From: a virus
Taxonomy: Duplodnaviria; Caudoviricetes
Length of the DNA stretch: 44,717 nucleotides
Reading direction: 5' to 3' (one strand)
Virus record (IMG/VR): IMGVR_UViG_3300016466_000173
Coordinates: 1-44,717 of that record
Positions 3,670 to 33,831 of the stretch are shown here, in pieces (positions within the stretch are counted from its first letter, which is position 1; the number at the start of each line of letters is the position of its first letter). The position numbers and the translations under genes are program-made. The notes beneath the pieces were generated by a model. It was not told the origin of the DNA. It ran no database searches and worked only from the letters and a program-made list of their open reading frames with translations.

Positions 3670-6600
3670 ATGGATGAGTTGAGAAAACTATATGATGCAC
3701 TGATAAGAGATGGTTATTATACCAAGTCTTTTGAGGAGTTTCAAAAACAATTTCAGGATACATCATATCAGGATAAAGTATACGGTGTTGTTTCTCGTGA
3801 TGGTTTATTTACAAAGCCTAAGGATGATTTTTTAAAACAATATGCCGTTGGTCCTGCAAAGCCAATCATTGAGCCATTAAAAAAAAAAGAAGAGCCAACA
3901 CTCAGCGACATACAGTCAGGATATACAGATATGGCATCTTCCTCGGAAGGTGGTTCATCGGTTTCATCAGGTACTAAAGGAGACCCTAATGACCCTAATT
4001 GGGGATGGGAAGACGATGAGCCAAAACCATATCAACGGACATTTATACCTCAGTTTGAGAAGCGTCCAATAGTTACTCAGGACAATACCTACGTAGCCAA
4101 ACCAATTGATATGGTTGGTATGAAAAGGTATCAAGAGTATCAACAACAGACTAAGGCTTTACTTGAACAGGCAAAGAAAGAGGAAAGGGCTAAGGCTCAG
4201 GAGGAGGAGCAGATATTCAAATCTCAAAACCTCGCTGCTATAAAAGACGAGCAGTTCCAAAAGTATCTTGCAGATGTAAATGCTAATCTGATTGACAAGT
4301 CAGAGGAAGAAGTTGTGCCTGAACTAAACAGAAGGTTTAGTGCTTATGGGTTTCACTTTGAAGAGGCAGCCCCCGGAGCAGACGCAATGTATGTTCGTAC
4401 TTCCGATGGTAAACACGAACTATATATTGACCTTGACCCATTTACTACCGCAACAGAAGTAGTCGAGTCTAAGAAACTCCGTGACTTTATCAACTTATAT
4501 GCACGTGGTAAAGAAGAGGAAAAGTCTGAGGATTATATAGGCAAAGCAGTACGTGCTCAGAAGATGAGGAATGTTGGTATGCGTAATGATGATGGTACGT
4601 ATTCAACTGTTAAGTTCGCATCGTTTGAGCAAGACGGTAAATACTTTGTAGTTCCTACCCTTTTCCCTAAGGACCCAAATGCCACATATACCACCAATAA
4701 AAAAGATTGGATGGAATTGCCCCTTGAAGAGGCTATTGCTGAGGCTCGTAAACGTGGTGAACTATTTCAGTTTGACAATGACAAAGAAGCAAAAGAGTTT
4801 GCTGAGGGAGATTGGAAAGATGTAAATGCTTTTGACATTGAAGGACAAAAGTTTTACAAGGAGAAAGGTTTAGACTACTACGCTGAGAAAAAGAAGTATA
4901 AGAACTATATTCAATTGCAGGATGAACTCGATTTGATTGATAAGATACTTGAAGGAGAATCAATAACTCCTGAGGAGAAGATGAACAATCCGAGATATTT
5001 TGCCAAGGATATGAGGCGTTTGTATACCAATGAAATGCTTGAGCAAAAGAGAGAAGAGGTATTGAAGAAAAAGGACAATCTTCTTGAACAGGTATATGAC
5101 CTTGAGTTTATGGGTATTGACGAGGGAAATGTTCAGAAGACACGTGAAGACTTTGACTTAGTTCTTGGTAAGCGTCAGAACGAAATTGCAGGAGAGGCTA
5201 TCAAAGTAAATGCTGCAGCAAAGCAAGAGTATGAGGCATTGAATCAAACGGCATTATCAGTTTATAATGTACCCATTGATAAGATAAGCACGATTGTCCC
5301 AAAGACACCACAGGATGCAGAGAATATAAAGAACCTTACTTCTCAGTTGGTAAAAGTTAAGGCTGCTCAAAACACTGCTGCTACAAAGTTTGAGATAGCA
5401 AAGACATACTATGATGCTAAGTGGAATAAAGGCATTAACAGTGAATATGAGGAGAATTGGTCCGGGTTTGTTACGTCAGTATCAGACGCTTGGAACAATG
5501 GTCAAGCAGCAGAGCAAATACTTTTATTGACATTAGGCGTTAAGGATGCTGCTAATGTAAAAGATAGACAAGAGGCTGCTCGTTTGATTGTTGAGAATCT
5601 ATCTGATGTTTCGGGGAAACAGTCAAGAGTTTTGACAAGGACTAATCTTGCACGTGATGGTGAATTTTTAAAGGCAGTTCTTTCTGACCCACTTGAAGCA
5701 ATATCTACTCTTACTGCTACATCACTAACTCAGATGCTGCCATATGGTAGTTATATTGTTTCAAGTGCAGCAGCAGCAGGGACTGCTGCGGGTGCAGCAG
5801 CAGGACTTGCAGGTGGACCATTTGCTGAAGTAACTGTTCCCGGAGGTGCAGTCACAGGTTTGGGATATGGGCTTAGAACAGGTATGGCTGCCACTATGTT
5901 TGCTATGGAGTATACCAACTCAATCCTTGATGTTATGCGTGAGAAGGGATATGACCTTATGGACCCTGCTCAGGTTGAGGCTGCTCTTTCTGATGAAACA
6001 GTATGGGCTGAAGGTGGAGAAAGAGGTACTCTAAGAGGTGTGCCTATTGCAGTGGTTGATTTCTTATCTGCAGGACTTGCAGGTAAAGTTTTCAAAACAA
6101 GCAAATTAGCATCAGTTCCCGTAAGAGTAGGGGCACAGGTTGCGGAACGTGCATTGTTTGACCCTGCAGCAGAAGCAGCAGGTGAATACTTGGCTCAAAC
6201 TGTAGCCGGGCAGGATATTGATTTTAAAGAAATTGCATATGAGGCATTAGGTGGTTTAGGTAGTAACACATCTCATATGGCAGTCAATCTGTATAAAGAG
6301 GCACGTAACAATTCAAATACTGCCTTAGCATACGAACTGACAGACATTAATCGTGTAGCACGTGAGAGTGTAAGTGATGAGCGAATTTCTCAGTGGGCAA
6401 ATAATATGCATCAACTTGGAAAGATTGACGCTGATGTTAATCAACGCATACAGGCGAATGTTGGTCTCCGTAGAGAGGCACGTGAACTTGTATCAGTTGG
6501 TAGAGCAAGTCGTCTTCTTGGTGATGGTAAAAAAGTTGAGGCACGTGTAATGGAATTGTTGGCAGCAAGAAATGAATTGTCTGCCACTCAGAACCGCAGG

Positions 6601-9600
6601 GAAATAAACCGTAATAAGATTTCTCAGATAAACCAAGAGATTGCTACCATATCTGAGAGCAAGAAACTTCTTCCTGAGAATAAGGAAGTAGCAGGAGACG
6701 GTGTAAGCACTGCAGTTAATCTTGATGCTATTCTTGGTACAACTCGTGAAGGTGTATCAAGATTTGTAATAAGCGGGAAAACCTTGACCCGTGAACAGTT
6801 TCTCAAGGAGTTGGATAATATGAGCAACCGTAGGCTTCTTCGTGCTCCTGTCTTTGTTGACAATGACGAAGAGGCTCAGAAGTTGTACGAACAAAAAGTA
6901 AAAGATGCCATTCAAAAGCAAAGCCCAAGTCAAGTTTCTGTACAGTCAGAAGCCGGAGTTAGCGAAACGGTGGAGGAAAGAAAACCCGAAACAAAACCTG
7001 AAGTCGCTACCCAAAAAGATTTCCAAAAAGAAATAGACGCTATAGAAGAGCGTAGGAAGAAAGAACTTTCTGATTATTCAGAAGACCAACTCGATGAGAT
7101 TTATTCTATTGGTGATACAAAAAGAACTATCAGAGACTTCGTTAATGCTAAGTATGACAAAGAGATTGCTGACTTAAAGCCAAGTGCAGCAGTAACTACT
7201 GAAGAAGTAACTCAAGCAGAAGAAGATTTAGTGTCTTCAAAGACACGCCTTGATGAACTTGCAGAAGCAATTCCTCAGCGTATTGACTATACTGAGGAAG
7301 ACATTACAAACTTCGATACCTTAGAAGAAGATAAAGCCAAGGGTATAATTACTGCATTGGCTGAGAAGATTAATGATGGAACCAAGTTAACACCTGTTGA
7401 GAGGTCATTGTATGATGCGAACAAAGCACAGGTCGATGAGGTAAGTGGTTTAGTTGCTGAGCGTACTGCAATACAGGAAGAGGTTGCTGACCTTGAGGCA
7501 TTGATTTCAGAAAGCCAACCTACACGTGCTGAACTAACCGATGAGCAAATAGTTGAATATGCTCCTGATGAAGATGTAAGGGATAAAAACAATGATGTAC
7601 TTTTAAAAGCACTTCAATCAAAAAATGTTTCACCACAGGCAGAGCCAATTGTAACTGACCTTGGTGATGTAGTTGTTTTTGAGTACAACAATTTTGATGA
7701 GAACGAAACAAGGACACGTCTTACATTCAAGAAAAAAGCAGATGGAACAATAATCTCAAGAGGTGTTAAGGTAGAAAGAAGTACGGGAGATATACGTGGT
7801 ACTGATTTATTCAAGAACTACGTTGAATCTCAGAGACGTAAAAGAAGAGCAGAGTTCCGTGCTGAAGAAGTTTTAGCAGAAACAACACTTCCACCTAATG
7901 AAACATCAGATTTTAACAGAGGGGTAGCAGAGGTTAAAAAGAATGCTGAAGAGTATCGTAAGTTAAAAAACATAAAAAGGATACCCAATCCTGCACAAAA
8001 GAGTCTATTTACAATAGTATCTGAGATGATGGCTAAAGCATATGAAAAGGTTTTAAACAAACCAAATGATGCTATAGTTAAAAAAGCATATGATGCTATG
8101 ATTGAAGAAACTCTTCAGCAATATGACTTCATTGTATCAAAGGGTTTAAAAGTAGTAAGACATACAGGTAAAGGAGAGCCATATGCCAACTCAAATGAAA
8201 TGCTAAAAGACTTGAGAGATAATAATACTCTCAAATTTTTGCCTAATGATGTAGCATTTGGACAAGATGTAACTGCTGCCACAGATAACATTGGTCTACA
8301 ACCAAGTGGTAGAAAATTACCTGATGGATATGAGATGACTAATTCTGAGGTATTCAGAGTTGTGCACGATTATTTTGGTCACGGAATTTTAGGTAATCAA
8401 TTTGGTCCTATTGGTGAAGAGAATGCAACACTTCAGCATCTTGATTTATACAGTGATATTGCTGCACCTGCAGTTATATATCAGACAAGGGGACAAAATT
8501 CTTGGGTTAATTTTAGTGGAGAAAATTCACGTGCAAATGAACTCAGAAAACAAGCACGTGAGTTAAAGAAACAAGGTAAAGAAAAAGAAGCAAATTTATT
8601 ATTGGAAGAAGCAGATAAAATATTTAAATTTGCAGAACCAAAAATTGGTTTATTCCCAAATATATTTAATTTCAAAAGATATGAATCAGCGAGAAGAATT
8701 AGAGACAAACAAATCCTTGACAATAGACCAAATAAACGAAATTCTGACTTACCCGACTTATTGGCAGCCTATTCTAACAGAAGCCGTTCAACGAGGGGAG
8801 TCAATAAAAGAGACATACGAGAGACTAAAACCATTAGAGGATTTAGTTTAAATGTAATTGCTGAATATAAATTAGACAATCGTATAGAAAGGGGAATTAA
8901 AAAAGCATTCCCATTATTCAAAGGAGTTCAAAAGATTTATGAAATAACTGACGGTGATAAGTATCGTCAGATGATGATTGATGCCTTAAAGGATAATCCC
9001 TATGGTTCATCAGCAACCATATACTCTGCTGAAGATTTCAGTAAAATGAGATTGTTTATAACAGAGGATGGGTCTACAGGTTTTACATTAAGAGAAGATG
9101 GTTTTTTAGGGGGTGGATTTTCTGACCCTAAATTTAATAGACCACAAAATATTGCTCAGTTATTAATTTTAGGTATAAAAGAAGGAGGAACTACTGTTGA
9201 ATGTTTTGATACTATTCTTCCTGATTATTATTCTTATTTCGGATTAAAAGCAGTATCAAGAAATACATTCAACGATGAGTACAGACCAAAAGAATCAAGT
9301 GGTACTGCAGTAAAAGATTGGGATTATCAAACATATAGGAACTTTAATAATGGTAGACCCGATGTTGTATTTATGATTTATGATGGAGGAGATAGAAATA
9401 CCATTGAAGACAGGTTAGGTATTTTTGATGAATACAAAAATTACGAGAAGGATAATACTAAGTCTTTTGATAGTTATGATGATGCTGAAGAGTTTATGAA
9501 GCAGGAGGCAGTTAAGAGACTTGAGTTAGACTTTGAACAATCAACAGATACAACAAAACTAAAAGAAGATGGCAAAAAAATTACTAAGCCCGGCAACAGA

Positions 9601-12600
9601 CTCTTCAATCAGTCTATCCCGGAAGTTTCGGAAATTGCGGATAGATATTTCCAAGGAGCCTTTGGGAGACAACGTCCTCAGTTCTATGGCACAAGGTCAA
9701 TCGACAAAGAAAGAGCCAAAAGAATCTCAGATGCCTTTAAAAGATTAGTCGATAATCCAACTGCTCCCAATGTAAAAAGAGCATACGAGGCAATGGCTCG
9801 TGAGACAATTGAGCAGTATAAATTTATGCTTGATGCAGGTTACTTTGTTGAGATAAACAATGAAGAGCCTTATGGTAACTCAAATGAAATGATTGAGGAC
9901 CTACGCACAAACAAGCGAATGAAAATATTCTCAACCGAGTCAGGCTTTGGTGATGAAAAGATTACACCTGAACAGAGGGACCGCAATGTTCTACTGCGTG
10001 AGTCAGGATTCTATGATGTAAATGGTCAGCCTTTATTGGTTAATGATTTGTTCCGTGCAGTTCACGATTTCTTCGGTCACGCTGAATTAGGCAATTCATT
10101 TGGTCCTATTGGTGAGGAGAATGCTTGGAACGTACACGCACGTATGTATTCACCATTGGCACGTCAAGCAATGACTACTGAAACACGTGGTCAAAACTCA
10201 TTCGTTAACTTCTCCGGGGTTAATGAGCGTGTTGAGGCAATGCGTCAAGAGGCAGCGAATCTTAGGAACCAAGGAAAACTTGCTGAGGCTGAGGCTCTTG
10301 TTGGTAAGATATACGAAGAGATATCTTTTGCAGAGCAGAAGCAAGGAATACTTCCCGAAGAATTTTGGACAGTAGATACTGATGATATAGGAGATGCTGA
10401 GTTCATACCTAATACTAATTTATCTATTGATACAAAAGAATCAAATGTACAGAATGGATTGACTCAGCAGGAGTTTATTTCTGCAGCATCCAATGGTAAT
10501 ATGTCAAATGCAACTAAACTTGCAAACTTTCTGAACACTGCGTTCCCAAGTGTTACCATATCAACTGACAAAGTTTCTTTTGATAATGTAATGGCTCAGG
10601 TTGGAACCGAGATATATATGCGTGGTAACTTAATTGTCTATGGTGTAACCGTAGATGGTGACATATATATTAACCCTGACGTACACAATAGTGAGTCGGC
10701 TCTGTTCAATACAACTATTCACGAGTTTGGTCACGTATGGACAGACTATCTGCAAGGGTCTAAGAAAGGCAAAGCAATATACGCTCGTGGTGTAGAAGTT
10801 ATTCAAGAAGCCATAGCAAATGATGAGAATGTAAAGAAGATATTTTATGCTCAGATGAATAAGTATTCGGGAGACCGGGCACGTGCTATCAATGAAACGA
10901 TGGCTATTCTAATTGGCAATAAAGGTGAAGAGATTGTAAATGAAAGTGTAAAGAATAAATTCAAGGAATGGTTGCTTGATGTTTGGAAATTCATCAAAGA
11001 TAATTTCAAGATGTCAAAAGATTTGTCTGAAGAAGAGATTCAAAACCTCACCCTTGATGGATTTATTCAGACTGCATTGGCAGATATATTTAGTGGCTCA
11101 GAGATATCTCTTACAGACGTTCAGAAAAAAACACTGAAGAATCCTGATGCTATGTTCAGTAGCACTCAGTCTATGCAGTCAATCATACAACAGGCACGTG
11201 CTAATGGATTCTCTGATGCTGCTATCAAACAGGTGCTTCTCAATCGTGGATTCAAAGCAAGTGATATCAACAATGCACTCGTAGTACAGATAGATGTTAC
11301 CACTGATTTGCCACGTGAGTTTGCAAATGTTCAAGGTGGTGTACAAAAAGGGTATCAGTTATTCACAGAGGTACGTGCTGAACTGCAGAGGTTTGCTCAT
11401 ATGGGTCCACGTGGCGGTATCCGTAGAGAACGCACCAAGACGTGGTCAGAGATTCGTGAGAAGGCTATTGAACTTCTGAAGGCAAACCCAATCTATCAGG
11501 CTCAGTCAGATACTGTGCAGATGGAATTGATTAGTGCGTTTGACAGGACGCTGAATACCTCAGCCAATACGAATGTAACCCGTCAGATAAGTGCTATCAG
11601 AAACAATCTTCGTCAGCGTAAGATTGGTGCTAAAGAATTACAACAGGCTAAGATTGCAGTGAAGAACCTTATCCGTTCTGTTCTGCCAAAGTCTGATATG
11701 TATTCTCAGGCTCAGATAAACAAACTGATTTCAATCATAAGCAATGCAACCGAGGCTTCTATCCTATCTGATACAGAGAAGGTGATGAAGATAGTTGAGC
11801 AGCAGAGAGGCAAGATGAAAAAGTCTGTGCTCAAGAAGATGATTGAATTGGTAAACAAGAAGGCTAAACCTGCAATGACTACCACAGGTAAACGCAGGAG
11901 CCGTGGTCTTGACCCGGAGGGACAGGCTTTCTTTGCTCAAGTTAAACCTATCATTCGTGCGGTTATAAATGATGACGTTCAGTTCCTTTCTGATATGGCT
12001 GCTGAGTTGGCACAGGCTGACGCTGATGGCTCAATCAATGAGGCTATATTGAAACAGAACCGTGGTGAGAAACTTACTACACAGGAACAGGCTCTGTTGA
12101 ATAAGGCATATGCCTATGATACATTTGGCGACCTTATGACTATGGAATTGGAAGAAGTTGAGCAGTTATTGGCTGAACTTCAGGACGCACGTGCTGAGTC
12201 ATTGAGAAGACTGAAGACACGTAGGGAAGTAAGAGCAATGAGATATGATGCTCTTAGCCAACAGGCTACTGCACAGGTGTCTGAGTTGAACCCTGAGTTG
12301 TTTGTTGAGGAGACGGTTGAAGTAACACTGCCAAATGGAGATGTTGAAACTATTACAGTAGTTAGACCGAAGAGCCGTAACGAACTTGTTCAAGACAGGG
12401 CTGCAATACGTAGAGCATTTCAGAGTGGTAAGATATGGTCAGGCTTCAAGCAGTTGGTTGCACGTTGGGACTACACCACCATCACAGGTGTAAAGGACTT
12501 TATTCGTAAGCGTATTCTTCACTTGGGTTCAATGATGAATCTGTTTGATAATGACGCTCAAGGAATGACGTTCTTCCGTGACAATGTGTACCGTCCGCTA

Positions 12601-14805
12601 AACAGGATGGATGAGAAATCAAAGGTTGGTTACTTCTTTGAGATGGCTAACTTAGATGCTATGGCGAATAGCATACCCGGAATTACTAAAGGGTACAAAC
12701 AGATTCGCAATATGCTTCAGACAGGAATCCATACGTTTACTATCAAAGGTCAGGAGCAGATATATAATGCAGACAAACTGCTTCGCATCTACGCCTTGTC
12801 ATTGAATGATGTGCAGCGTGAGAAGTTAAAGCAGATGGGTTGGGATGATGCTCAGATACAGAAGATTAAAGATATCGTTGGTCCTGAGCCTATTGAGTTC
12901 GCAAACAAGTTGGTTGAATACTTCAGCAATGATTACTACGAGTCAATCAATAACGTATACTCTCACGTCAATGATGTGAATCTTGGGTACATACCAAACT
13001 ACTTCCCGACAATCACACAGTCTCAGAAGGTAAGTGCTAAGTTATTGGAAGATGGTGACTTCAATGGAATCTTCAATGCTGAGACTGCTCCTGCACTGAA
13101 AGAACGTAGTGACACTTCAGGGCTTATTGAATTGAACTATGACTTCTCTGATGTGGTAGAGAGTCACTTCGTAACAATGGAGAAGTATAAGGCATACGCT
13201 GAGGGTGTAAAAGAATTGAATGCAATCTTCCAAAACCCTGCGTTCAATGTACTTCTTGAGGAGTCAGGATTGAAGACCGTTGTTAAGCGTTCAGTAAACT
13301 TTGCTATTACTCCGAATGCCGGACAGAAAGAAGAGCAGACTGCACTTGGTAAACTGATGACTAAGTTCACCGGGTTTGCACTTGCATTCAAAGCGGTTCA
13401 AGTTGTTAAACAGGCTACTTCATTCGTCAATGCATACGAGGACTATAGTTATTTCCCTGCTGATTCAAGAGTACCATCAGTTATAAAAGGTCCAATCGAC
13501 CTTATGATGTTTATGGTTGACAGTGCAAAGGTTATTGCAACTATGCCAAAGCAGGTGCGTAAAGCATACGGTATGTCAGCAAATATCCGTGACCGTTTAT
13601 TGAAAGGTATTCAGGGAGATGTATATGGTCTTGAGTCAGGCTCAAATGTATTCTCTCCTATAGACAAGCGTACTGATATATGGGCACGTGCAGTACGTGC
13701 ATTCAGAACGGGTGCTGCCGGACCTACAGTTCTCGGTGACATACTTGGTGTAATGGGATATATGGTTAACTATAACCGCAACATTGCAAACGGTATGAGC
13801 GAGGCTGATGCATTAGAAGCATTCAACGATTATAACGCAACTGCTCAAAGCCGAAGGGGTACTGAGAAAATATCTCTGCAACAAAACAGTACAGAGTTGG
13901 CTCGTGCATTCACAATGTTTGGTAGCACTACATTCCTTCAGATAAACAAGGTTCTTGCTGCACAGACAAATATGTTCCGTGCACTGAAACAAGGTCAGAT
14001 GCCAAGTGCTAAAGACATTCGTGCATTTGCTATCAACCTTGGTATTGCTAACGCATTATTCGTAGGTGTATCAAATCTTGCCAAGTTTATTAAGGGTGAT
14101 GACGATGACCGTGAAGAAGTGCTGAAGCAAATGGGCAAGGCTTTGGTTGGTCTTAACCTTATCGAGTCAATACCTTTAATTGGTGCAGCAGTTGAAACTG
14201 CATTGGCTGATATTGAGGGAGAGAAAACAAGAGGCGGTGACAATGTGGTTAATCCGTATATGCAGGTGTACAAAAAAATGAAACGTGCATCTGAGGAAGA
14301 AGTGGGATTCAAGTCAGTGCAGCCTTTGATAGAGATTGTTATCGGTGCACAGGTTGACCCATTCATTGGTCTATACAATGGTGTGGCAGATGGGTTTGAT
14401 GAAGAGGCTATCTATGATTTGCTTGGTATCAGCAAGTCGTACCGTCCAACACAGGAGAAAGAGAAAGCACCACCTAAAGAAAAACCTATGGGCAAGGAAG
14501 ATATGAAACGATACTTCCCTGAAATGTACGAGCAATTGTATGGTCCCGGTGGTGCACTTGAAGAGACAGAAGAGTTCAGACTCGAACAAGAAAGAATCGA
14601 GAGAGAGCAACTCAAGCGAGAAAAGGACCTGATGTATGGATATGAAGAGTCTAATGGTGGTACTGTATGGAGTAAAGAGAAAAAGAAAAGAGGCAAAAAG
14701 GAAGAGTCGGGTACTATATGGGGTGAGAAAGATAGTAAAGGCGGTACAGTTTGGGATGAGAAAAATACTAAAGGTGGAACAGTATGGGGAGAAAAAGAAA
14801 AGTGA
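3670..14805 (+). CDS. Giant (3711 aa) polyvalent-type virion/ejection protein
   Basis: Two copies of an FRxVHDxFGH..FGPIGEENA..TRGQNS domain, a GNAT-like CFDTILPDYY..GRPDVVFM segment, a HEFGH zincin motif, a G/A-rich hydrophobic stretch and C-terminal GGTVW repeats. Confidence 0.8.
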   Translation: MDELRKLYDALIRDGYYTKSFEEFQKQFQDTSYQDKVYGVVSRDGLFTKPKDDFLKQYAVGPAKPIIEPLKKKEEPTLSDIQSGYTDMASSSEGGSSVSSGTKGDPNDPNWGWEDDEPKPYQRTFIPQFEKRPIVTQDNTYVAKPIDMVGMKRYQEYQQQTKALLEQAKKEERAKAQEEEQIFKSQNLAAIKDEQFQKYLADVNANLIDKSEEEVVPELNRRFSAYGFHFEEAAPGADAMYVRTSDGKHELYIDLDPFTTATEVVESKKLRDFINLYARGKEEEKSEDYIGKAVRAQKMRNVGMRNDDGTYSTVKFASFEQDGKYFVVPTLFPKDPNATYTTNKKDWMELPLEEAIAEARKRGELFQFDNDKEAKEFAEGDWKDVNAFDIEGQKFYKEKGLDYYAEKKKYKNYIQLQDELDLIDKILEGESITPEEKMNNPRYFAKDMRRLYTNEMLEQKREEVLKKKDNLLEQVYDLEFMGIDEGNVQKTREDFDLVLGKRQNEIAGEAIKVNAAAKQEYEALNQTALSVYNVPIDKISTIVPKTPQDAENIKNLTSQLVKVKAAQNTAATKFEIAKTYYDAKWNKGINSEYEENWSGFVTSVSDAWNNGQAAEQILLLTLGVKDAANVKDRQEAARLIVENLSDVSGKQSRVLTRTNLARDGEFLKAVLSDPLEAISTLTATSLTQMLPYGSYIVSSAAAAGTAAGAAAGLAGGPFAEVTVPGGAVTGLGYGLRTGMAATMFAMEYTNSILDVMREKGYDLMDPAQVEAALSDETVWAEGGERGTLRGVPIAVVDFLSAGLAGKVFKTSKLASVPVRVGAQVAERALFDPAAEAAGEYLAQTVAGQDIDFKEIAYEALGGLGSNTSHMAVNLYKEARNNSNTALAYELTDINRVARESVSDERISQWANNMHQLGKIDADVNQRIQANVGLRREARELVSVGRASRLLGDGKKVEARVMELLAARNELSATQNRREINRNKISQINQEIATISESKKLLPENKEVAGDGVSTAVNLDAILGTTREGVSRFVISGKTLTREQFLKELDNMSNRRLLRAPVFVDNDEEAQKLYEQKVKDAIQKQSPSQVSVQSEAGVSETVEERKPETKPEVATQKDFQKEIDAIEERRKKELSDYSEDQLDEIYSIGDTKRTIRDFVNAKYDKEIADLKPSAAVTTEEVTQAEEDLVSSKTRLDELAEAIPQRIDYTEEDITNFDTLEEDKAKGIITALAEKINDGTKLTPVERSLYDANKAQVDEVSGLVAERTAIQEEVADLEALISESQPTRAELTDEQIVEYAPDEDVRDKNNDVLLKALQSKNVSPQAEPIVTDLGDVVVFEYNNFDENETRTRLTFKKKADGTIISRGVKVERSTGDIRGTDLFKNYVESQRRKRRAEFRAEEVLAETTLPPNETSDFNRGVAEVKKNAEEYRKLKNIKRIPNPAQKSLFTIVSEMMAKAYEKVLNKPNDAIVKKAYDAMIEETLQQYDFIVSKGLKVVRHTGKGEPYANSNEMLKDLRDNNTLKFLPNDVAFGQDVTAATDNIGLQPSGRKLPDGYEMTNSEVFRVVHDYFGHGILGNQFGPIGEENATLQHLDLYSDIAAPAVIYQTRGQNSWVNFSGENSRANELRKQARELKKQGKEKEANLLLEEADKIFKFAEPKIGLFPNIFNFKRYESARRIRDKQILDNRPNKRNSDLPDLLAAYSNRSRSTRGVNKRDIRETKTIRGFSLNVIAEYKLDNRIERGIKKAFPLFKGVQKIYEITDGDKYRQMMIDALKDNPYGSSATIYSAEDFSKMRLFITEDGSTGFTLREDGFLGGGFSDPKFNRPQNIAQLLILGIKEGGTTVECFDTILPDYYSYFGLKAVSRNTFNDEYRPKESSGTAVKDWDYQTYRNFNNGRPDVVFMIYDGGDRNTIEDRLGIFDEYKNYEKDNTKSFDSYDDAEEFMKQEAVKRLELDFEQSTDTTKLKEDGKKITKPGNRLFNQSIPEVSEIADRYFQGAFGRQRPQFYGTRSIDKERAKRISDAFKRLVDNPTAPNVKRAYEAMARETIEQYKFMLDAGYFVEINNEEPYGNSNEMIEDLRTNKRMKIFSTESGFGDEKITPEQRDRNVLLRESGFYDVNGQPLLVNDLFRAVHDFFGHAELGNSFGPIGEENAWNVHARMYSPLARQAMTTETRGQNSFVNFSGVNERVEAMRQEAANLRNQGKLAEAEALVGKIYEEISFAEQKQGILPEEFWTVDTDDIGDAEFIPNTNLSIDTKESNVQNGLTQQEFISAASNGNMSNATKLANFLNTAFPSVTISTDKVSFDNVMAQVGTEIYMRGNLIVYGVTVDGDIYINPDVHNSESALFNTTIHEFGHVWTDYLQGSKKGKAIYARGVEVIQEAIANDENVKKIFYAQMNKYSGDRARAINETMAILIGNKGEEIVNESVKNKFKEWLLDVWKFIKDNFKMSKDLSEEEIQNLTLDGFIQTALADIFSGSEISLTDVQKKTLKNPDAMFSSTQSMQSIIQQARANGFSDAAIKQVLLNRGFKASDINNALVVQIDVTTDLPREFANVQGGVQKGYQLFTEVRAELQRFAHMGPRGGIRRERTKTWSEIREKAIELLKANPIYQAQSDTVQMELISAFDRTLNTSANTNVTRQISAIRNNLRQRKIGAKELQQAKIAVKNLIRSVLPKSDMYSQAQINKLISIISNATEASILSDTEKVMKIVEQQRGKMKKSVLKKMIELVNKKAKPAMTTTGKRRSRGLDPEGQAFFAQVKPIIRAVINDDVQFLSDMAAELAQADADGSINEAILKQNRGEKLTTQEQALLNKAYAYDTFGDLMTMELEEVEQLLAELQDARAESLRRLKTRREVRAMRYDALSQQATAQVSELNPELFVEETVEVTLPNGDVETITVVRPKSRNELVQDRAAIRRAFQSGKIWSGFKQLVARWDYTTITGVKDFIRKRILHLGSMMNLFDNDAQGMTFFRDNVYRPLNRMDEKSKVGYFFEMANLDAMANSIPGITKGYKQIRNMLQTGIHTFTIKGQEQIYNADKLLRIYALSLNDVQREKLKQMGWDDAQIQKIKDIVGPEPIEFANKLVEYFSNDYYESINNVYSHVNDVNLGYIPNYFPTITQSQKVSAKLLEDGDFNGIFNAETAPALKERSDTSGLIELNYDFSDVVESHFVTMEKYKAYAEGVKELNAIFQNPAFNVLLEESGLKTVVKRSVNFAITPNAGQKEEQTALGKLMTKFTGFALAFKAVQVVKQATSFVNAYEDYSYFPADSRVPSVIKGPIDLMMFMVDSAKVIATMPKQVRKAYGMSANIRDRLLKGIQGDVYGLESGSNVFSPIDKRTDIWARAVRAFRTGAAGPTVLGDILGVMGYMVNYNRNIANGMSEADALEAFNDYNATAQSRRGTEKISLQQNSTELARAFTMFGSTTFLQINKVLAAQTNMFRALKQGQMPSAKDIRAFAINLGIANALFVGVSNLAKFIKGDDDDREEVLKQMGKALVGLNLIESIPLIGAAVETALADIEGEKTRGGDNVVNPYMQVYKKMKRASEEEVGFKSVQPLIEIVIGAQVDPFIGLYNGVADGFDEEAIYDLLGISKSYRPTQEKEKAPPKEKPMGKEDMKRYFPEMYEQLYGPGGALEETEEFRLEQERIEREQLKREKDLMYGYEESNGGTVWSKEKKKRGKKEESGTIWGEKDSKGGTVWDEKNTKGGTVWGEKEK
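6905..7036 (+). CDS. Nested +1-frame small basic protein MPFKSKAQVKFLYSQKPELAKRWRKENPKQNLKSLPKKISKKK (43 aa)
   Basis: ATG after A-rich leader CAAAAAGTAAAAG; resembles small MPFKSxAQ..PE.AKRW phage proteins (from recall, not searched); the main frame is a low-complexity linker here. Confidence 0.65.
   Translation: MPFKSKAQVKFLYSQKPELAKRWRKENPKQNLKSLPKKISKKK
7231..7246. repeat. 16-bp palindromic motif copy 2 (GTGTCTTCAAAGACAC), intragenic
   Basis: Exact copy; read as V-S-S-K-T. Confidence 0.95.
8602..8632 (+). promoter_or_regulatory. Putative internal Bacteroidetes promoter (TTG-N20-TAAATTTG) inside the giant gene
   Basis: Consensus -33/-7 boxes with 20-nt spacing, 48 nt upstream of the nested ORF at 8681. 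Confidence 0.45.
8681..8851 (+). CDS. Nested +1-frame small protein MNQREELETNKSLTIDQINEILTYPTYWQPILTEAVQRGESIKETYERLKPLEDLV (56 aa)
   Basis: Globular-looking composition while the main frame becomes abnormally R/S/N-rich; AT-rich leader and upstream promoter-like motif. Confidence 0.55.
   Translation: MNQREELETNKSLTIDQINEILTYPTYWQPILTEAVQRGESIKETYERLKPLEDLV
9569..9748 (+). CDS. Nested +1-frame small ORF MAKKLLSPATDSSISLSRKFRKLRIDISKEPLG... (59 aa)
   Basis: ATGGCAAAAAAA start after an A-rich leader (ACAACAAAACTAAAAGAAG), in an interdomain linker. Confidence 0.4.
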   Translation: MAKKLLSPATDSSISLSRKFRKLRIDISKEPLGDNVLSSMAQGQSTKKEPKESQMPLKD

Positions 14806-14825
14806 GTGTCTTCAAAGACACTCAC
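14802..14825. repeat. 16-bp palindromic motif copy 3, extended to GTGAGTGTCTT-CA-AAGACACTCAC at the convergent gene junction
   Basis: Core at 14806-14821 fills the gap exactly between two convergent TGA stop codons. Confidence 0.95.
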
Positions 14826-24870: not shown

Positions 24871-24912
24871 CGGATGAGGGGGGAGTCGAACCCCCCTTGC
24901 AACCATTCATCC
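24871..24912 (-). ncRNA. tRNA-like minihelix (acceptor stem plus T-arm, no D or anticodon arm)
   Basis: GGATGA-ATGGTTGCAA-GGGGGG-TTCGACT-CCCCCC-TCATCC-G on the - strand. Confidence 0.65.
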
Positions 24913-24913
24913 T

Positions 24914-24929
24914 GTGTCTTTGAAGACAC
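24914..24929. repeat. 16-bp palindromic motif copy 7
   Basis: Exact copy abutting the GATase stop codon, 1 nt upstream of the minihelix. Confidence 0.95.
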
Positions 24930-26050
24930 TATAACAGATTGTCTACGTCCTGCTGAGTGTACCATTCGTTGCATCCTGTGCAACAATAGTTGCCATAGCC
25001 ATCGTGCTCAAGGTCACGATAGCAGGACGTGCAGTATGGCGTGTCAACAAACTTGTCCTCAGTCTCGATATCAATACCGCTTAACTGAGCGTAGTAGTCA
25101 TCGAATGAACTGAACTCTAACTGCCTGTAGGAAGGCTCCCACGTAGGCTTAGTGTAATCAACAGGCTCCCACGTGCGGACGGGCTTTGGTCTGTTATAGT
25201 TCACCTCGTATGACTCGTGCATCTTGTCTGAAGAAGTGCGTGGTGTCTGAAGGTTGAAGTAAATCCAACAGGTCACCACCTTATTCTTTTTGAGTCTGAT
25301 AGGTATCTGCTTACGGCAGTACCATCGTGGGTGTCCCTCAAGTTGGTCTAACTTGCTGAGCACCGTGTCGCTTACCTTGAACACGTCCACCTTCACGTTG
25401 TGCCCTACACCCTTCTCGTCAATCAGATACGGCAGTCCTTGAATCAGCAGTGGATACTTGTCCTCAGTCTTGCCTGACGCTACGAACTTTGAGTCAGTGA
25501 GGTATCGGTAGTAGTTGCCGTGCCCCTTCTTGAGTGTGCCGTAGACGGCAACAAGATTGTCTTGCAGTACGTTGTCCTTCGAGTACCACACCCCGTCCTT
25601 GAATGTCCATAGGTCACGGTTGTAAATCTGAAAGGTGCGGGTGCGGGTGTTGATGGTGACGAACCGAACAAGTTTGTTTTTCTCTAACTCAGACTTCCAC
25701 TTGTGGCGTGGCACTGAACCGAGTGACTCAGCCAATACTTTGGAGTCGCACTTCTCAGCATTGCCAAGCCCATAGATAGTCCCGTTCATCATCAGGTACT
25801 CATTCTTTTGAGCACCGCACCTGAACGGGTGCGTGTTGTCGAGACCGACCTTGCCGACAGTGGCGTATCGGAAGTGGGCAATGTAAGGGCGTGGTGTGTC
25901 GAGCACTGCCCAATCCTTTGACTTGTGATAGGTTACCTCGAAGGTGTCGAGCCACACAACCCCCAATCCGTGGGGGTTAATACGTGATGAGTTTTTCAGA
26001 GTCTCTGAGGGAATCTCAATGTTCCGTTGTTTGATGATGATGATGCACAT
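24929..26050 (-). CDS. Class II glutamine amidotransferase fused to gamma-glutamylcyclotransferase (AIG2-like), with C-terminal Zn ribbon
   Basis: MC start (Ntn Cys2), NPHGLG, HFRYAT, NTHPF, NG; then VAVYGTLKKG and LDQLEGHP.WY.R; then CxxC..CxxC. Confidence 0.85.
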   Translation of the reverse strand: MCIIIIKQRNIEIPSETLKNSSRINPHGLGVVWLDTFEVTYHKSKDWAVLDTPRPYIAHFRYATVGKVGLDNTHPFRCGAQKNEYLMMNGTIYGLGNAEKCDSKVLAESLGSVPRHKWKSELEKNKLVRFVTINTRTRTFQIYNRDLWTFKDGVWYSKDNVLQDNLVAVYGTLKKGHGNYYRYLTDSKFVASGKTEDKYPLLIQGLPYLIDEKGVGHNVKVDVFKVSDTVLSKLDQLEGHPRWYCRKQIPIRLKKNKVVTCWIYFNLQTPRTSSDKMHESYEVNYNRPKPVRTWEPVDYTKPTWEPSYRQLEFSSFDDYYAQLSGIDIETEDKFVDTPYCTSCYRDLEHDGYGNYCCTGCNEWYTQQDVDNLL

Positions 26051-27574: not shown

Positions 27575-27781
27575 TTATTTTTTCCACAGGTTTATGCCAC
27601 AGGCTAAGACCGTGACGTTTTCCACTGATACCTGTGCAACCCCTCGTCCACCTCGACTGAAGTAGAATAGCCTTTTGTCTGTGCTCAGCGTAGCCCACTG
27701 CTCATACAGGTGCAATGGAAGATAGGAGACAGGCTTCTCAATTCGGATAAGGTAGACATTGCTTTGTGTTGCTTGTGTCAT
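27575..27781 (-). CDS. Hypothetical early protein
   Basis: 68 aa, ATGA-coupled to the upstream gene. Confidence 0.55.
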   Translation of the reverse strand: MTQATQSNVYLIRIEKPVSYLPLHLYEQWATLSTDKRLFYFSRGGRGVAQVSVENVTVLACGINLWKK

Positions 27782-28062
27782 CTTGCACCCCCTTCCTGTA
27801 GCAGGGTCTTGAACCCCTTGTAAACTCCGCTCCTGTAGGCGTTGCTCTTGTAGTCAAACGTCCCCGACAGGATGATGCTTGTGATACTACAGAACCTCAC
27901 CTCAATTTGGTGGAGCACCTGCTCGAATGTCTTGCCCTCAAGAAGGGCTTTGATTACCTGCTCCCGTGTGCTCACAGAAGGGTTGTCAAACGTGCCGTTT
28001 GCCTTCGCCTCAATGTGTGCGTCCGCAATGGCTTTCACTTGTTTTGAAATTCGCTTTGTCAT
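27778..28062 (-). CDS. Hypothetical early protein downstream of hammerhead 1
   Basis: 94 aa with A-rich leader. Confidence 0.65.
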   Translation of the reverse strand: MTKRISKQVKAIADAHIEAKANGTFDNPSVSTREQVIKALLEGKTFEQVLHQIEVRFCSITSIILSGTFDYKSNAYRSGVYKGFKTLLQEGGAR

Positions 28063-28086
28063 ATCTGTTTTGTTTTAGTTGGTTTT

Positions 28087-28135
28087 ACGTTTCGTCCTTT
28101 CGGACTCATCAGCACAGGCACTCACCTGTGGACGT
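28087..28135 (-). ncRNA. Type III hammerhead ribozyme 1
   Basis: ACGUC^CACAGG-UGAGUG-CCUGUG-CUGAUGA-GUCC-GAAA-GGAC-GAA-ACGU; complete core and three stems. Confidence 0.93.
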
Positions 28136-28141
28136 GGGGCA

Positions 28142-28157
28142 GTGTCTTTGAAGACAC
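28142..28157. repeat. 16-bp palindromic motif copy 9 in an extended hairpin (28136-28163)
   Basis: Exact copy; flanks GGGGUG/UGCCCC pair on the - strand with G-U wobbles. Confidence 0.95.
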
Positions 28158-28184
28158 CACCCCGTTCAACACCACATTGAACTG

Positions 28185-28445
28185 TCAATTGCAACCGACC
28201 TGTATGCACAGGGTCAGCCCTGTCTGTTGCTCGTACCACTCATACGCCCGTTCATTGCGTATGTCGTACATTGTCTCAGTGTACTTGTCATATGCACCCA
28301 CTTCCCACGGGTGGTTCTTTATGTACCTCAGCCGTCCCTCACGCCCGTAGTTGTAGAAGTGTGGCAAAGTGTCGGCAGGGACGAAGTTCTCAAGGTACTG
28401 CTCAGCAGTGAACGTGTATGACGTTGGCTTATACTCAGTGTTCAT
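28185..28445 (-). CDS. Hypothetical early protein
   Basis: 86 aa, ATGA-coupled. Confidence 0.6.
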   Translation of the reverse strand: MNTEYKPTSYTFTAEQYLENFVPADTLPHFYNYGREGRLRYIKNHPWEVGAYDKYTETMYDIRNERAYEWYEQQTGLTLCIQVGCN

Positions 28446-28827: not shown

Positions 28828-29097
28828 TTAGAAAGTTAGGTATGTTCTGTAGTTGTGGTTGTACTGACGGCAAAAGAACTTCATAACGGAAACGTCATCT
28901 GTAAGCAGTACTACCTCATACAAGTGACCCTTTGTGCGTTTGAAGGACTCCTGTACCTCAAGTGCGTTCTCCTCGTCCGCAAGTGGTACAATAGTAAGAT
29001 TGGCTTTGTTCACCGCAATCACCCAATGGGTTGCAGTTACTTTGTCGGTCTCGTTTTCTTCCTGTGACAGGAAGAAGGTGTTTTGTTGGTTTGTCAT
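28828..29097 (-). CDS. Hypothetical early protein downstream of hammerhead 2
   Basis: 89 aa with AT-rich leader. Confidence 0.65.
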   Translation of the reverse strand: MTNQQNTFFLSQEENETDKVTATHWVIAVNKANLTIVPLADEENALEVQESFKRTKGHLYEVVLLTDDVSVMKFFCRQYNHNYRTYLTF

Positions 29098-29124: not shown

Positions 29125-29176
29125 GCCTGTTTCGTCCTGTTGGACTCGTCAGCACGGGCTTCACCCGTGGACAGGC
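29125..29176 (-). ncRNA. Type III hammerhead ribozyme 2
   Basis: GCCUGUC^CACGGG-UGAAG-CCCGUG-CUGACGA-GUCC-AACA-GGAC-GAA-ACAGGC; complete core, 6-bp stem III. Confidence 0.93.
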
Positions 29177-29181
29177 GGGGA

Positions 29182-29197
29182 GTGTCTTTGAAGACAC
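29182..29197. repeat. 16-bp palindromic motif copy 10 in an extended hairpin
   Basis: Exact copy flanked by CGGGGA/TGCCCCG. Confidence 0.95.
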
Positions 29198-29213
29198 TGC
29201 CCCGTTCTGTAGG

Positions 29214-30215
29214 TCACCTCACGTTTGGTGACCAAACCCCGTTGTGGGGGTCACGTGCGTCAGCGTCCCACGCAGAAAGGTGTATCTGCCTTGGGTCAAC
29301 CGCCACGGCTATCTCACGGCTCAGTTTGCCCTGCAAGATGAACCTGCGGTAGTGACGTGCCTTCTCAATCCGCTTCTCAGCCTCAGCCTCGTTGCCCCCG
29401 TACATTGACAGTATGATAGGACGGATACGCTTGAGGAAGGACTCGTGGGACGTGTTGGGTGCGTTCACCGCAGTGTCCACAAGGGCATAGAACAACTCGT
29501 ACCTGCGGATGCACTGCTTCACGCTCTCGAACCTGCTCACAACCCTAAACTCAAGCCCCTCAGAGCCGTCACTGAAAGACTTCTCAAGGGCATACTGATA
29601 GCGACCCCCGTGTCCCCCCTCACCCTGCCAATGACCTGCCTCATTGCGTCCAAAGAGCCTCAGATTGCCGTTGCAGTAGCCGTTCAGAAGACGCTTCTCA
29701 AACAGAGCGTGGATAATGCCACAAAACGGACGGATAGCCTTGCGTAGGTCATCTGAAGACATACCTTTCACGGTGATGGTCACGTGCCCACCGCACCTGC
29801 GGTCAGCAGGGCTATAGCGGGAGTCAATAATCTTCTCAGCCTGTACGAACAGGTCAAAGACCTTCGTCCGCCACTTGCCTTCGGGGAGCAGGGGCAAAAT
29901 GTGGGTGATAGCCTCATAACCGCAAGAGCCGTCACGCTCGAACCCCGCGAACAACGGGTACTCCTTCACGCTCGACCTGTGCAAGGTGTTCTTCTCAATC
30001 TCGAACCCGATAGTGAAACGGCTGATAAACTCACCCTGCTCCTGTAGGATAGCCCTACTGCGGTCTACAGGCTTCAACCCTACCACGTCCACAGGGAAGG
30101 CGGTTTTGTTGCGTTTTAGGGGCTTTGGTGCTCCGTGATAAGAGCGAATTTCGTCACGTCCGTAGTCACCTGTGTTGGTGTACGTGATACCTTGTAAAAT
30201 TTGATTGGTGTTCAT
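29214..30215 (-). CDS. Putative amidoligase (COOH-NH2 ligase, Amidoligase_2-like)
   Basis: IGFEIE, DGS..YE, CGGHVT and LEFR motifs; GATase-GGCT gene nearby. Confidence 0.75.
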   Translation of the reverse strand: MNTNQILQGITYTNTGDYGRDEIRSYHGAPKPLKRNKTAFPVDVVGLKPVDRSRAILQEQGEFISRFTIGFEIEKNTLHRSSVKEYPLFAGFERDGSCGYEAITHILPLLPEGKWRTKVFDLFVQAEKIIDSRYSPADRRCGGHVTITVKGMSSDDLRKAIRPFCGIIHALFEKRLLNGYCNGNLRLFGRNEAGHWQGEGGHGGRYQYALEKSFSDGSEGLEFRVVSRFESVKQCIRRYELFYALVDTAVNAPNTSHESFLKRIRPIILSMYGGNEAEAEKRIEKARHYRRFILQGKLSREIAVAVDPRQIHLSAWDADARDPHNGVWSPNVR

Positions 30216-30250
30216 ATCTGTGGTGTTTTTGGTTTAGTTAGTGAAGGGCA

Positions 30251-30266
30251 GTGTCTTTGAAGACAC
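30251..30266. repeat. 16-bp palindromic motif copy 11 in an extended hairpin
   Basis: Exact copy; GGGCG/UGCCC flanks on the - strand; intergenic. Confidence 0.95.
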
Positions 30267-30281
30267 CGCCCGTTGATTGGT

Positions 30282-30959
30282 TTAGTTAGATGACCCCCTT
30301 TGTGAAAGTGCACCCTGTAAGAACTGAATAGCAAGGGCTATCTCTTCCTCAGTGTTACCTGTGGTCACCTGCCCGTTCACGTCCACACGGATTGAGACGT
30401 TGCGACCTAACTGCAGGTCAGCAGCCTTGAAAGACAGGGTCAATATGGTGGGCACACGTACTTCCACTTCAGCAGCACTGCCTTCGCCTTCGCCTTCTCC
30501 GTCTCCTTCGCCTTCACTTCCACCACCTTTGGTGCTCTGTTCCGTCTCAGCCTGTGCCCTTGCGAACTTCAGCAACCCCTCAAGGGTTCTGTTCGGTTCA
30601 TTGCCTTCAGCCTCAGCCTCATCACACTTTGTGGTGAACAGGGCAATAACGTCCTGTGATAACTTCCCTGCCTTCAGCACCTTGTAAAAGTAGGACTTTT
30701 GCCACCCGAAAACTTTCTTCCCGAACTCTTCGTTTGACCACGTCACGCCTTCCTCACGGAAGACTGCCTTGCCTTCCTCAGACGTGAACCACTCGTGGGC
30801 TTTGACCACAAGGACTGACAGGGTCAGTGTGTTGTTGAACTTGCTCTTTTGAGCGTTTGTTAGTGTCCGTTGCACTCTACGGATTTCTGTGATTTGGAGT
30901 CCTGCCTTCACTGAAGGAAGGTTAAGGAGTGCCGACTCGATTTGCAATAAATTGCTCAT
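30282..30959 (-). CDS. First early gene; hypothetical with possible HTH and a G/E linker
   Basis: 225 aa; EEFGKKVFGWQKSYFYKVLK resembles an HTH; GEGDGEGEGEGS linker. Confidence 0.7.
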   Translation of the reverse strand: MSNLLQIESALLNLPSVKAGLQITEIRRVQRTLTNAQKSKFNNTLTLSVLVVKAHEWFTSEEGKAVFREEGVTWSNEEFGKKVFGWQKSYFYKVLKAGKLSQDVIALFTTKCDEAEAEGNEPNRTLEGLLKFARAQAETEQSTKGGGSEGEGDGEGEGEGSAAEVEVRVPTILTLSFKAADLQLGRNVSIRVDVNGQVTTGNTEEEIALAIQFLQGALSQRGSSN

Positions 30960-31021: not shown

Positions 31022-31051
31022 CAAAGATAGTATAAAGAATGTACATTGCAA
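31022..31051 (-). promoter_or_regulatory. Major leftward early promoter TTG-N19-TATCTTTG
   Basis: Consensus with an upstream A-tract. Confidence 0.75.
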
Positions 31052-31089
31052 TACCTTTGGCAATTTTTTTTTAATTTTTTTTTCGTGCC

Positions 31090-31460
31090 CTGCAGTCACG
31101 GGCTTTGCCGTCCCTGTTTGTACGCCCTGTGGACGTGCTCTGTCCCTGCTGATTATTAAGGAAGGACAGGAGACGGGCGGTGGGCTAAAGAAGGTCTCTC
31201 TGTTTGCGTCCCTGTTTTCAGTGTCTTTGAAGACACGGGACGGGCGGAGACGGGGAAACCTGCAGGGGCGGACGGGCGGACGGCAGGGCGGAGACAGGCA
31301 GGGCAGGGCGGTGCTCCCACCACAGGCAGGGCAGGGCTGCAGGGGGCTGCGTAAAAACGTCAAAAAGTTCGGACGGGGAAACCGAAAGGTGACCCCCACC
31401 CCCTTGAGGCGGGGGGCGGTTCCGTGGGGGGTCGGCTCACGCAGGATGGCGGGGGAACCC
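31090..31460. other. GC-rich non-coding divergence region with GGGC(A/G)G repeats; possible genome terminus
   Basis: Lies between divergent promoters; repeated GGCAGGGC/GACGGGCGG units and G/C tracts. Confidence 0.55.
31221..31236. repeat. 16-bp palindromic motif copy 12
   Basis: Exact copy in the divergent non-coding region. Confidence 0.95.
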
Positions 31461-33719: not shown

Positions 33720-33812
33720 AGTCAGGTGGCGGAATGGTAAACGCTCGCTTCAAGGTGCGGTTAGTCAACGAAATGTAAAGCTAACGTACAGGTTCGAATC
33801 CTGTCCTGACTG
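33720..33812 (+). tRNA. Atypical tRNA (Leu-like, probably CAA) with a shortened anticodon stem and long variable arm
   Basis: Acceptor AGTCAGG/CCTGACT, D-arm GCGGAATGGTAAACGC, T-arm ACAGG-TTCGAAT-CCTGT; anticodon arm CGC-TTCAAGGT-GCG is irregular. Confidence 0.65.
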
Positions 33813-33831
33813 CAAACAAATAAATAAAAAT

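Follow-up and report, generated by a model that had tools for sequence, protein, structure and literature searches.

A type III hammerhead ribozyme fused to a repeated palindromic hairpin as a candidate punctuation mark in early phage mRNA

The window, by which is meant the whole stretch of 44,717 nucleotides that was analysed, is a partial phage genome encoding GroEL/GroES, Sak, an exonuclease, a primase-helicase, a helicase and a 3,711-aa protein. The last (3670-14805, plus strand) follows the virion-protein genes and has no Pfam match; within its gene are two long DNA repeats, spaced 1.69 kb from each other. The locus described here lies on the minus strand, where a type III hammerhead motif (HH1; 28087..28135) is located between an 86-aa ORF upstream (28185..28445) and a 94-aa ORF downstream (27778..28062), the latter with no family match and with homologs in three relatives. 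HH1 is preceded, without any gap before its stem III, by a 12-bp hairpin (28136..28163), in which G-U and G-C pairs lengthen a 16-bp palindromic core (28142-28157). A preliminary description of HH1 omitted this hairpin, and thus covered one half of a larger cassette. About 1 kb upstream, a second type III hammerhead (HH2; 29125..29176; Rfam 44.5 bits, E 2.8e-7) adjoins another palindrome hairpin, identified by sequence and fold (29177..29203), which stands right after the stop codon of a 333-aa ORF (29214..30215). The predicted cut in HH2 falls after C29170 and leaves a 72-nt leader to the ATG at 29097. Farther upstream are a palindrome hairpin that has no cutter, hammerhead or tRNA-like, in this genome (30246..30272), and ORF 30959 (30282..30959), the first gene past the promoter, which encodes a helical, HTH-like protein. 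Pfam, PHROGs and NCBIfam returned no significant family for ORF 28062 (the 94-aa ORF), ORF 30959 or the 333-aa ORF. From motifs in its sequence, we take the 333-aa ORF to be amidoligase-like; together with a GATase/gamma-glutamyl cyclotransferase (GGCT) fusion (24929-26050, minus strand), it belongs to the early genes that are conserved across the family.

Read along the minus strand, HH1 consists of the 5′ strand of stem III, ACGU (28135-28132), C17 (28131), stem I with the strands CACAGG (28130-28125) and CCUGUG (28118-28113) around a UGAGUG loop, the CUGAUGA core (28112-28106), stem II, GUCC-GAAA-GGAC (28105-28094), the GAA core element (28093-28091), and the 3′ strand of stem III, ACGU (28090-28087). 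Every core, stem and loop element listed in the preliminary description was recovered at these positions. The core matches the class pattern (C3 U4 G5 A6 N7 G8 A9, G12 A13 A14, A15.1-U16.1, H17), and helices I, II and III comprise 6, 4 and 4 bp, with I and II closed by loops and III open. The two loops fit the hammerhead tertiary motifs, UNmYN for loop 1 and RNnA for loop 2, given in the available text of PMC2632901. The proposed loop-loop contact, between a U at the start of loop I and an A at the end of loop II, is likewise borne out by the pattern in HH1 and by the same U and A in 114/114 metagenome hammerheads among the matches listed, while a purine at the start of loop 2 is not universal in the family. 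By its sequence, its match to Rfam RF00008 and its covariation, HH1 is a canonical type III hammerhead with predicted self-cleavage between C28131 and C28130. Such a cut would leave the 68-nt leader (28130-28063) that had been proposed for the ORF starting at ATG 28062, and the last part of this leader, from HH1 to the ATG (28063..28086), is an A-rich initiation region without a Shine-Dalgarno (SD) sequence that is unpaired in the centroid fold. These properties match the Bacteroidetes translation-initiation features described in the available text of PMC6847099.

The comparison with Hammerhead_3 (RF00008) suggested in the preliminary description gave a full-model match of 41.1 bits (E 2.5e-6), which lies under the gathering score of 48.5, so that HH1 is assigned to the hammerhead class rather than to the curated family, and a scan at the gathering threshold misses it. 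At that threshold, the sole match in the window was a tRNA-like gene, and among 25 Hammerhead_3 matches in 11 relative loci, two passed. A hammerhead descriptor matched the window twice, at HH1 and HH2, and had no match in 300 order-2 Markov copies. ViennaRNA calculations, in which the hammerhead core and the loop-loop contacts are ignored, placed the HH1 hammerhead fold at -37.7 kcal/mol, 2.3 kcal/mol less stable than an alternative (-40.0) that pairs a stem III ACGU strand into the core and reduces the probability of stem III to 0.01. Low stem III probabilities are found family-wide in these calculations (mean 0.15 over 81 cassettes), and for HH2 the minimum free energy (MFE) structure is the hammerhead fold itself.

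The hairpin and HH1 fold together with a z-score of -4.4. The 16-bp palindrome GTGTCTTYRAAGACAC occurs in 14 exact copies between 697 and 44090, in both orientations, intergenic as well as inside genes (at 697, 7231, 14806, 16682, 20962, 22816, 24914, 26074, 28142, 29182, 30251, 31221, 36212 and 44075), where 0.00 were expected from 100 shuffles. Base pairing at the six flanking positions distinguishes the hammerhead-linked copies (n=32; 117 Watson-Crick, 42 G-U and 5 A-C) from those in genes, as delimited by crude ORF calls (n=38; 64 Watson-Crick, 11 G-U and 25 A-C), and the flanks of the metagenome set show 127 G-U against 42 A-C among the matches listed. This bias of G-U over A-C indicates, as far as sequence comparison can, that the hairpin is under selection as RNA. 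No gap separates hairpin and stem III in 44/56 palindrome cases and in 18/26 others. In ViennaRNA, the native upstream sequence lifted the probability of stem I from 0.78 to 0.90, with a rise in 72/81 cassettes, whereas stem III was not stabilised by the hairpin (improved in 34/81, p 0.19). A scan of viral contigs for the core alone revealed the same layout with unrelated hairpins (at least 125 loci, 46 of them scored type III, with at least 2 spurious), indicating that the ribozyme needs a hairpin, not GTGTCTTYRAAGACAC itself. Among these core-only hits (L072-L196), 79 of the at least 125 are type I/II-like, several adjoin the end of a tRNA or precede a start codon, and a few come from viroid-like records. 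A reading of the palindrome purely as an RNA loop was rejected, since its central six bases vary freely in three relatives (G041, G042 and G054) and palindromes occur within genes in both orientations. In some copies the palindrome forms part of a longer hairpin with a U-tract behind it, making these copies intrinsic terminators as well, including one at a convergent junction (window 14802-14825; G012 62499, G015 41599, G019 35081).

A scan for sigma-70 promoters and terminators performed at chance level (15 versus 16.5 and 15 versus 11.9), and the Bacteroidota consensus, taken from the available text of PMC6847099, was used instead. On the minus strand it located TTG-N19/20-TAnnTTTG promoters with -7 positions at 31029, 27549, 26124 and 22930, the first of which belongs to a -33/-7 promoter (31022..31051) that is the predicted driver of the HH2 and HH1 unit. 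No TAnnTTTG element was found on this strand between 31029 and 27577, which places both hammerheads inside one predicted transcript, and in 25 records of the family just 2/62 hammerheads have such an element within 150 nt upstream. The location of HH1 in an early-gene 5′ region, as given in the preliminary description, is correct in that the cassette precedes ORF 28062, but the site is internal to a predicted polycistron and not promoter-proximal; the term "early" itself rests on gene content and on promoters of the host type. The region 31050-31450, ahead of the first early promoter, is GC-rich, strand-skewed and non-coding, carries short repeats and a palindrome copy, and lies at a GC-skew switch, possibly marking an origin or genome end. 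The promoters, the A-rich leaders lacking SD sequences, and a cassette on a 56-kb contig in a Cytophagales bin point to a Bacteroidota host, which we infer from sequence; a second binned match to the cassette falls in a Verrucomicrobiales bin. Among GenBank phages no isolated relative was found, with one weak match of 4%.

The palindrome-plus-core pattern was found at 31 loci in 29 viral contigs, all of which hold 3-16 palindromes, with up to four hammerheads per 6 kb. The order of the module in the family is hairpin, hammerhead, A-rich leader and ATG. In 83 distinct cores, a set pre-selected by a pairing filter, 96.2% of cells were paired, double changes occurred at 13/15 pairs, stem I was 100% paired, and stem covariation was 0.746 compared with 0.222 after shuffling. 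Without the pairing filter, 81/84 palindrome-plus-core matches in the fetched loci form all three stems, as do 114/136 distinct matches among those listed from the metagenome scan; of the 22 listed misses, 20 resemble chance matches and two are near-complete hammerheads. At the orthologous site in the relative G021, the 86-aa ORF ortholog, the hairpin and the ACGU stem III are all kept, five of the six stem I pairs have both bases replaced, and the gene downstream is not the same. The distance from cut to ATG is 45-94 nt, mostly 60-76 (112 cases among the matches listed). Most relatives do not keep the HH1 junction, and members of 28 gene clusters are found downstream of cassettes. No individual placement is therefore essential, and this range of downstream genes is what an insulator serving a shuffled array of genes would be expected to show. 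The 10.1-11.1 position carries U-U in 35 and A-A in 10 metagenome hammerheads, 45 of 114 among the matches listed, and activity across the family therefore probably varies; these variants are found at loci L240-L379 and at L003, L005, L009, L014 and L223. U10.1-U11.1 variants were described in PMC3088659, the relevant section of which does not mention the A-A form. In a few loci (L007, L012, L013, L019 and L020) the leader is about 90 nt long and contains an extra conserved small hairpin before the start codon. Four hairpin-hammerhead cassettes with SD-like leaders are packed into 2.4 kb of an unrelated phage, G053 (L236, 14009-16410), showing that the layout is not limited to this phage family.

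At other junctions the place of the hammerhead is taken by a tRNA-like element. The copy in the window (24872..24912, minus strand; 41 nt) begins 1 nt past the palindrome at 24914-24929 and ends 23 nt before ATG 24848; it comprises a 7-nt acceptor-like stem with six pairs, a 10-nt GG-containing linker and a T-arm, and lacks CCA. Among 19 T-arm matches, ten are such short-linker mini-tRNA elements, with varying stems. The acceptor stems are imperfect (5-7 of 7 pairs), CCA is absent, and the MFE structure of the window copy is not a tRNA minihelix. RNase P recognizes the acceptor stem and T-arm of tRNAs, and the mini-tRNA is presumably a substrate of this enzyme. Since the genomes were chosen for at least one hammerhead and some records are partial, the following counts are biased rates: a cutter follows the 333-aa gene in 23/23 genomes (21 hammerhead, 2 tRNA-like) and the GATase/GGCT gene in 18/24 (12 hammerhead, 6 tRNA-like; one of the remainder has the palindrome only and five have neither), and between the first two genes, where the window has its cutter-less hairpin (30246..30272), a hammerhead is present in 5/22 genomes and a tRNA-like element in one. 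That hammerhead and mini-tRNA replace each other at fixed junctions is the strongest indication that selection is for cutting of the RNA. A direct swap before the 94-aa gene was rejected, since an ORF of 31 or 29 codons intervenes in G024 and G005. The tRNA-like gene of the window (33720-33813, plus strand) has no valid anticodon arm (ARAGORN "???") and is flanked by groEL and, about 20 nt downstream, an ATG. Comparable pseudo-tRNAs are present in G002, G005, G009, G012 and G019, and these elements may represent yet another type of processing mark, besides the hammerhead and the mini-tRNA.

Sequence signatures make it probable that the palindrome core serves as a DNA site as well. Its centre is YR in 149/149 exact-arm copies from 15 records, and at one helicase site it fixes synonymous codons in 11 genomes. 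Relatives use other palindromes, namely GRGGGTTYRAACCCYC, present 8-11 times in 4/4 genomes tested, and three further kinds; in nine genomes with other palindromes, 12/13 hammerheads adjoin the palindrome of their own lineage. Covariation with palindrome type makes the ORF 30959 product the likely best candidate for a palindrome-binding protein. Its predicted recognition helix starts at residue 88, and the adjacent Q87 is kept in at least 14/15 genomes with the same palindrome and differs in all six other types. In total, 18 of its 33 conserved columns change with palindrome type, far above nine control proteins (e.g., 1/46, 1/24 and 15/501). The relative G014, a sister to G054 by primase-helicase, has an ORF 30959 homolog closer to that of G003 (60 versus 42%), with which it shares the palindrome. 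In G038, both the homolog and a repeated palindrome are absent and the hairpin-hammerhead is retained; no homolog was found in G042, the record of which stops before that position. Part of the covariation is explained by kinship. Structural comparison of the ORF 30959 model gave weak fold matches to KorB (Z 5.4, rmsd 2.9 over 74), SopB (4.4), VirB (4.3) and Spo0J (3.9), with an unrelated chain ranking first; Foldseek searches with the two structure models, ORF 30959 included, were negative at E≤0.001, and the Atlas match was to DUF3102 (0.91, on 29% of members). The other candidates considered, a 153-aa ORF (35385), two DnaA-C-like ORFs and a 128-aa ORF, showed no covariation with palindrome type.

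We consider it probable, with appreciable room for doubt, that the HH1 cassette punctuates a long early phage mRNA, giving the upstream message a 3′ hairpin and the downstream message a structured 5′-OH end. Host RNA polymerase would start at about 31020 and read through the cassette. The palindrome hairpin would fold first and shield the ribozyme from upstream RNA, an effect that was modest in the calculations, and the hammerhead would then cut after C28131, as its consensus predicts, with the short stem III allowing the products to separate. The upstream mRNA would retain a terminator-like 3′ hairpin plus a few bases, with no termination involved, and the downstream mRNA would begin with a 5′-OH and stems I and II, its open A-rich initiation region lying 68 nt from the end. 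By analogy with RiboJ, the processed end may stabilise the downstream mRNA and even out translation whatever gene precedes it; RNase end preferences underlie the stability benefit assumed for a structured 5′-OH end. In relatives, the mini-tRNA would give the same outcome, presumably via host RNase P. It is possible, if somewhat doubtful, that the arrangement amounts to a two-layer code, in which the palindrome serves both as a DNA site for the first early protein, as the covariation suggests, and as an RNA cap, and the cutter is swappable between a hammerhead and a tRNA mimic of about 41 nt. If so, end chemistry, 5′-OH from the hammerhead or 5′-phosphate from RNase P, would tune the lifetime of each early mRNA, and operator occupancy would decide whether the cutter is transcribed.

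The same DNA-site signatures bear on a different role, in which the first early protein, bound to the palindrome, acts as a roadblock or operator and thereby controls transcription of the ribozyme and of the gene after it, while cleavage, instead of stabilising early messages, quickly shuts them off. The YR centre of all 149 copies, the two in-gene orientations and the fixed helicase codons agree with such regulated gating, as does the correspondence between palindrome type and ORF 30959, extending to the joint absence of protein and repeated palindrome in G038; however, hammerheads also adjoin unrelated hairpins (G010, G037 and G038; 26/83 cores), indicating that the palindrome is dispensable for the cassette, the similarity to KorB, SopB, VirB and Spo0J is weak (Z 3.9-5.4), and the covariation is partly a matter of kinship; we regard this role as unlikely. 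The variability of the gene array bordered by the cassettes raises the question of whether the repeated module mainly offers homologous stretches by which small early genes are shuffled, in the manner of PeSL elements in T4-type phages, with ribozyme activity being secondary. The window and G021 share the upstream gene and differ downstream, the reverse holds for the window and G022, and an annealing protein, Sak, is encoded in the phage genome. However, conservation in the cassettes concerns the structure and the catalytic core instead of homology: copies in one genome have diverged, the longest run in common being 12 nt at the median and 32 at most, stem I is identical in 1/66 pairs, and neither promoter nor U-tract is present, which makes this explanation quite improbable.

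Lying on the same strand at a distance of 1,040 nt, the two hammerheads would free a fragment (29169-28131), and hammerhead-released fragments carry 5′-OH and 2′,3′-cyclic phosphate ends. That HH1 and HH2 excise such a fragment for religation into a circular or autonomous RNA, or that the motifs are relics of a retroelement, has very little to recommend it, since several genomes have a single hammerhead, ends of the RNase P type cannot be ligated that way, the stems III are short and non-identical, and no reverse transcriptase was found among the 55 proteins scanned in this partial genome. Three ORFs lie between HH2 and HH1, the longest shared run of which is 17 nt, at variance with a retrozyme or viroid-like unit, and no circular or spliced product was detected according to the available text of PMC3088659. 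Just as slim is the chance that this copy of HH1 is misfolded or slow and functionally idle. Its 4-bp stem III, the alternative MFE structure and the stem III probability of 0.01 would suit an idle copy, but the folding calculation leaves the core and the loop-loop interaction out of account, the hammerheads described in that text commonly have weak stems III, the core and loop motifs of HH1 are perfect, and the G021 ortholog keeps ACGU while its stem I has been rewritten. Punctuation of the early mRNA is the reading we retain. The family supplies natural controls at orthologous junctions, namely the hairpin alone, with a hammerhead, with a mini-tRNA, and with U-U or A-A core variants, which make the mRNA-processing hypothesis directly testable. 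Should processing hold, the cassettes would offer compact native insulators, as well as orthogonal protein-palindrome pairs, for Bacteroidota engineering.

Several known systems resemble parts of this arrangement. HTH proteins of the KorB/ParB family act on 16-18-bp palindromes, and mycobacteriophage L5 has stoperators; in both, as predicted here, one site recurs in many copies over a replicon and is read by an element-encoded protein. The resemblance of ORF 30959 to KorB/ParB is in fold only (Z 3.9-5.4), with no ParB N-terminal domain seen, and L5 stoperators are asymmetric, whereas the present site is palindromic. In the T7 early region, RNase III cuts the polycistron between genes and the products keep stem-loops, but the agent there is a host protein enzyme rather than an RNA enzyme or tRNA mimic. 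In mitochondria, tRNA punctuation and t-elements are cases of tRNA-like folds at which long transcripts are processed. The theta ribozymes known from gut phages mark such sites too, but are HDV-like and adjoin real tRNAs, according to the available text of PMC10879173, whereas HH1 has a hammerhead fold and no adjacent tRNA, and in the present family hammerhead and mini-tRNA alternate before protein genes. The T4-type PeSL cassettes, as described in the accessible part of PMC2839356, are repeated promoter and terminator stem-loops amid small variable early genes. The cassettes considered here share that setting but contain a ribozyme in place of both functions: a TAnnTTTG element lies within 150 nt of 2/62 hammerheads, and stem III directly follows the hairpin with no U-tract. 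In RiboJ, self-cleavage strips the upstream context and raises protein 2-10-fold and transcript about 2-fold, as reported in the portion of PMC6206723 consulted; RiboJ is, however, an engineered element, placed in E. coli at a 5′ end close to the promoter, whereas the HH1 cassette is natural and internal and would leave its hairpin upstream.

The closest precedent is the set of clustered hammerheads described in phages and prophages by Perreault and co-workers in 2011 (PMC3088659). The statement in the preliminary description that phage hammerheads are reported is correct, and the role of self-cleaving ribozymes in bacteria and phages is indeed called unsettled in the accessible part of PMC6765202, but to call their function largely unknown understated the literature, given that the available text of PMC3088659 proposes polycistron processing and reports in vitro cleavage for three arrangements. 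That text mentions no abutting 5′ hairpin, genome-wide palindrome or tRNA-like exchange, and the palindrome string is missing from 11 supplementary files of the paper, in which gapped or core-only alignments could still contain these ribozymes. The fusion to a palindrome and the mini-tRNA swap were not found described in the literature searched, which consisted mainly of papers available without subscription. As in the present family, several hammerheads in those clusters flank single genes or short blocks of varying identity, gene-length mRNAs were proposed as products, and U10.1-U11.1 variants and weak stems III occur. Hammerheads flanking phage genes, their cleavage in vitro and the processing hypothesis were thus known from the available text of PMC3088659, and HH1 is a further member of this class.
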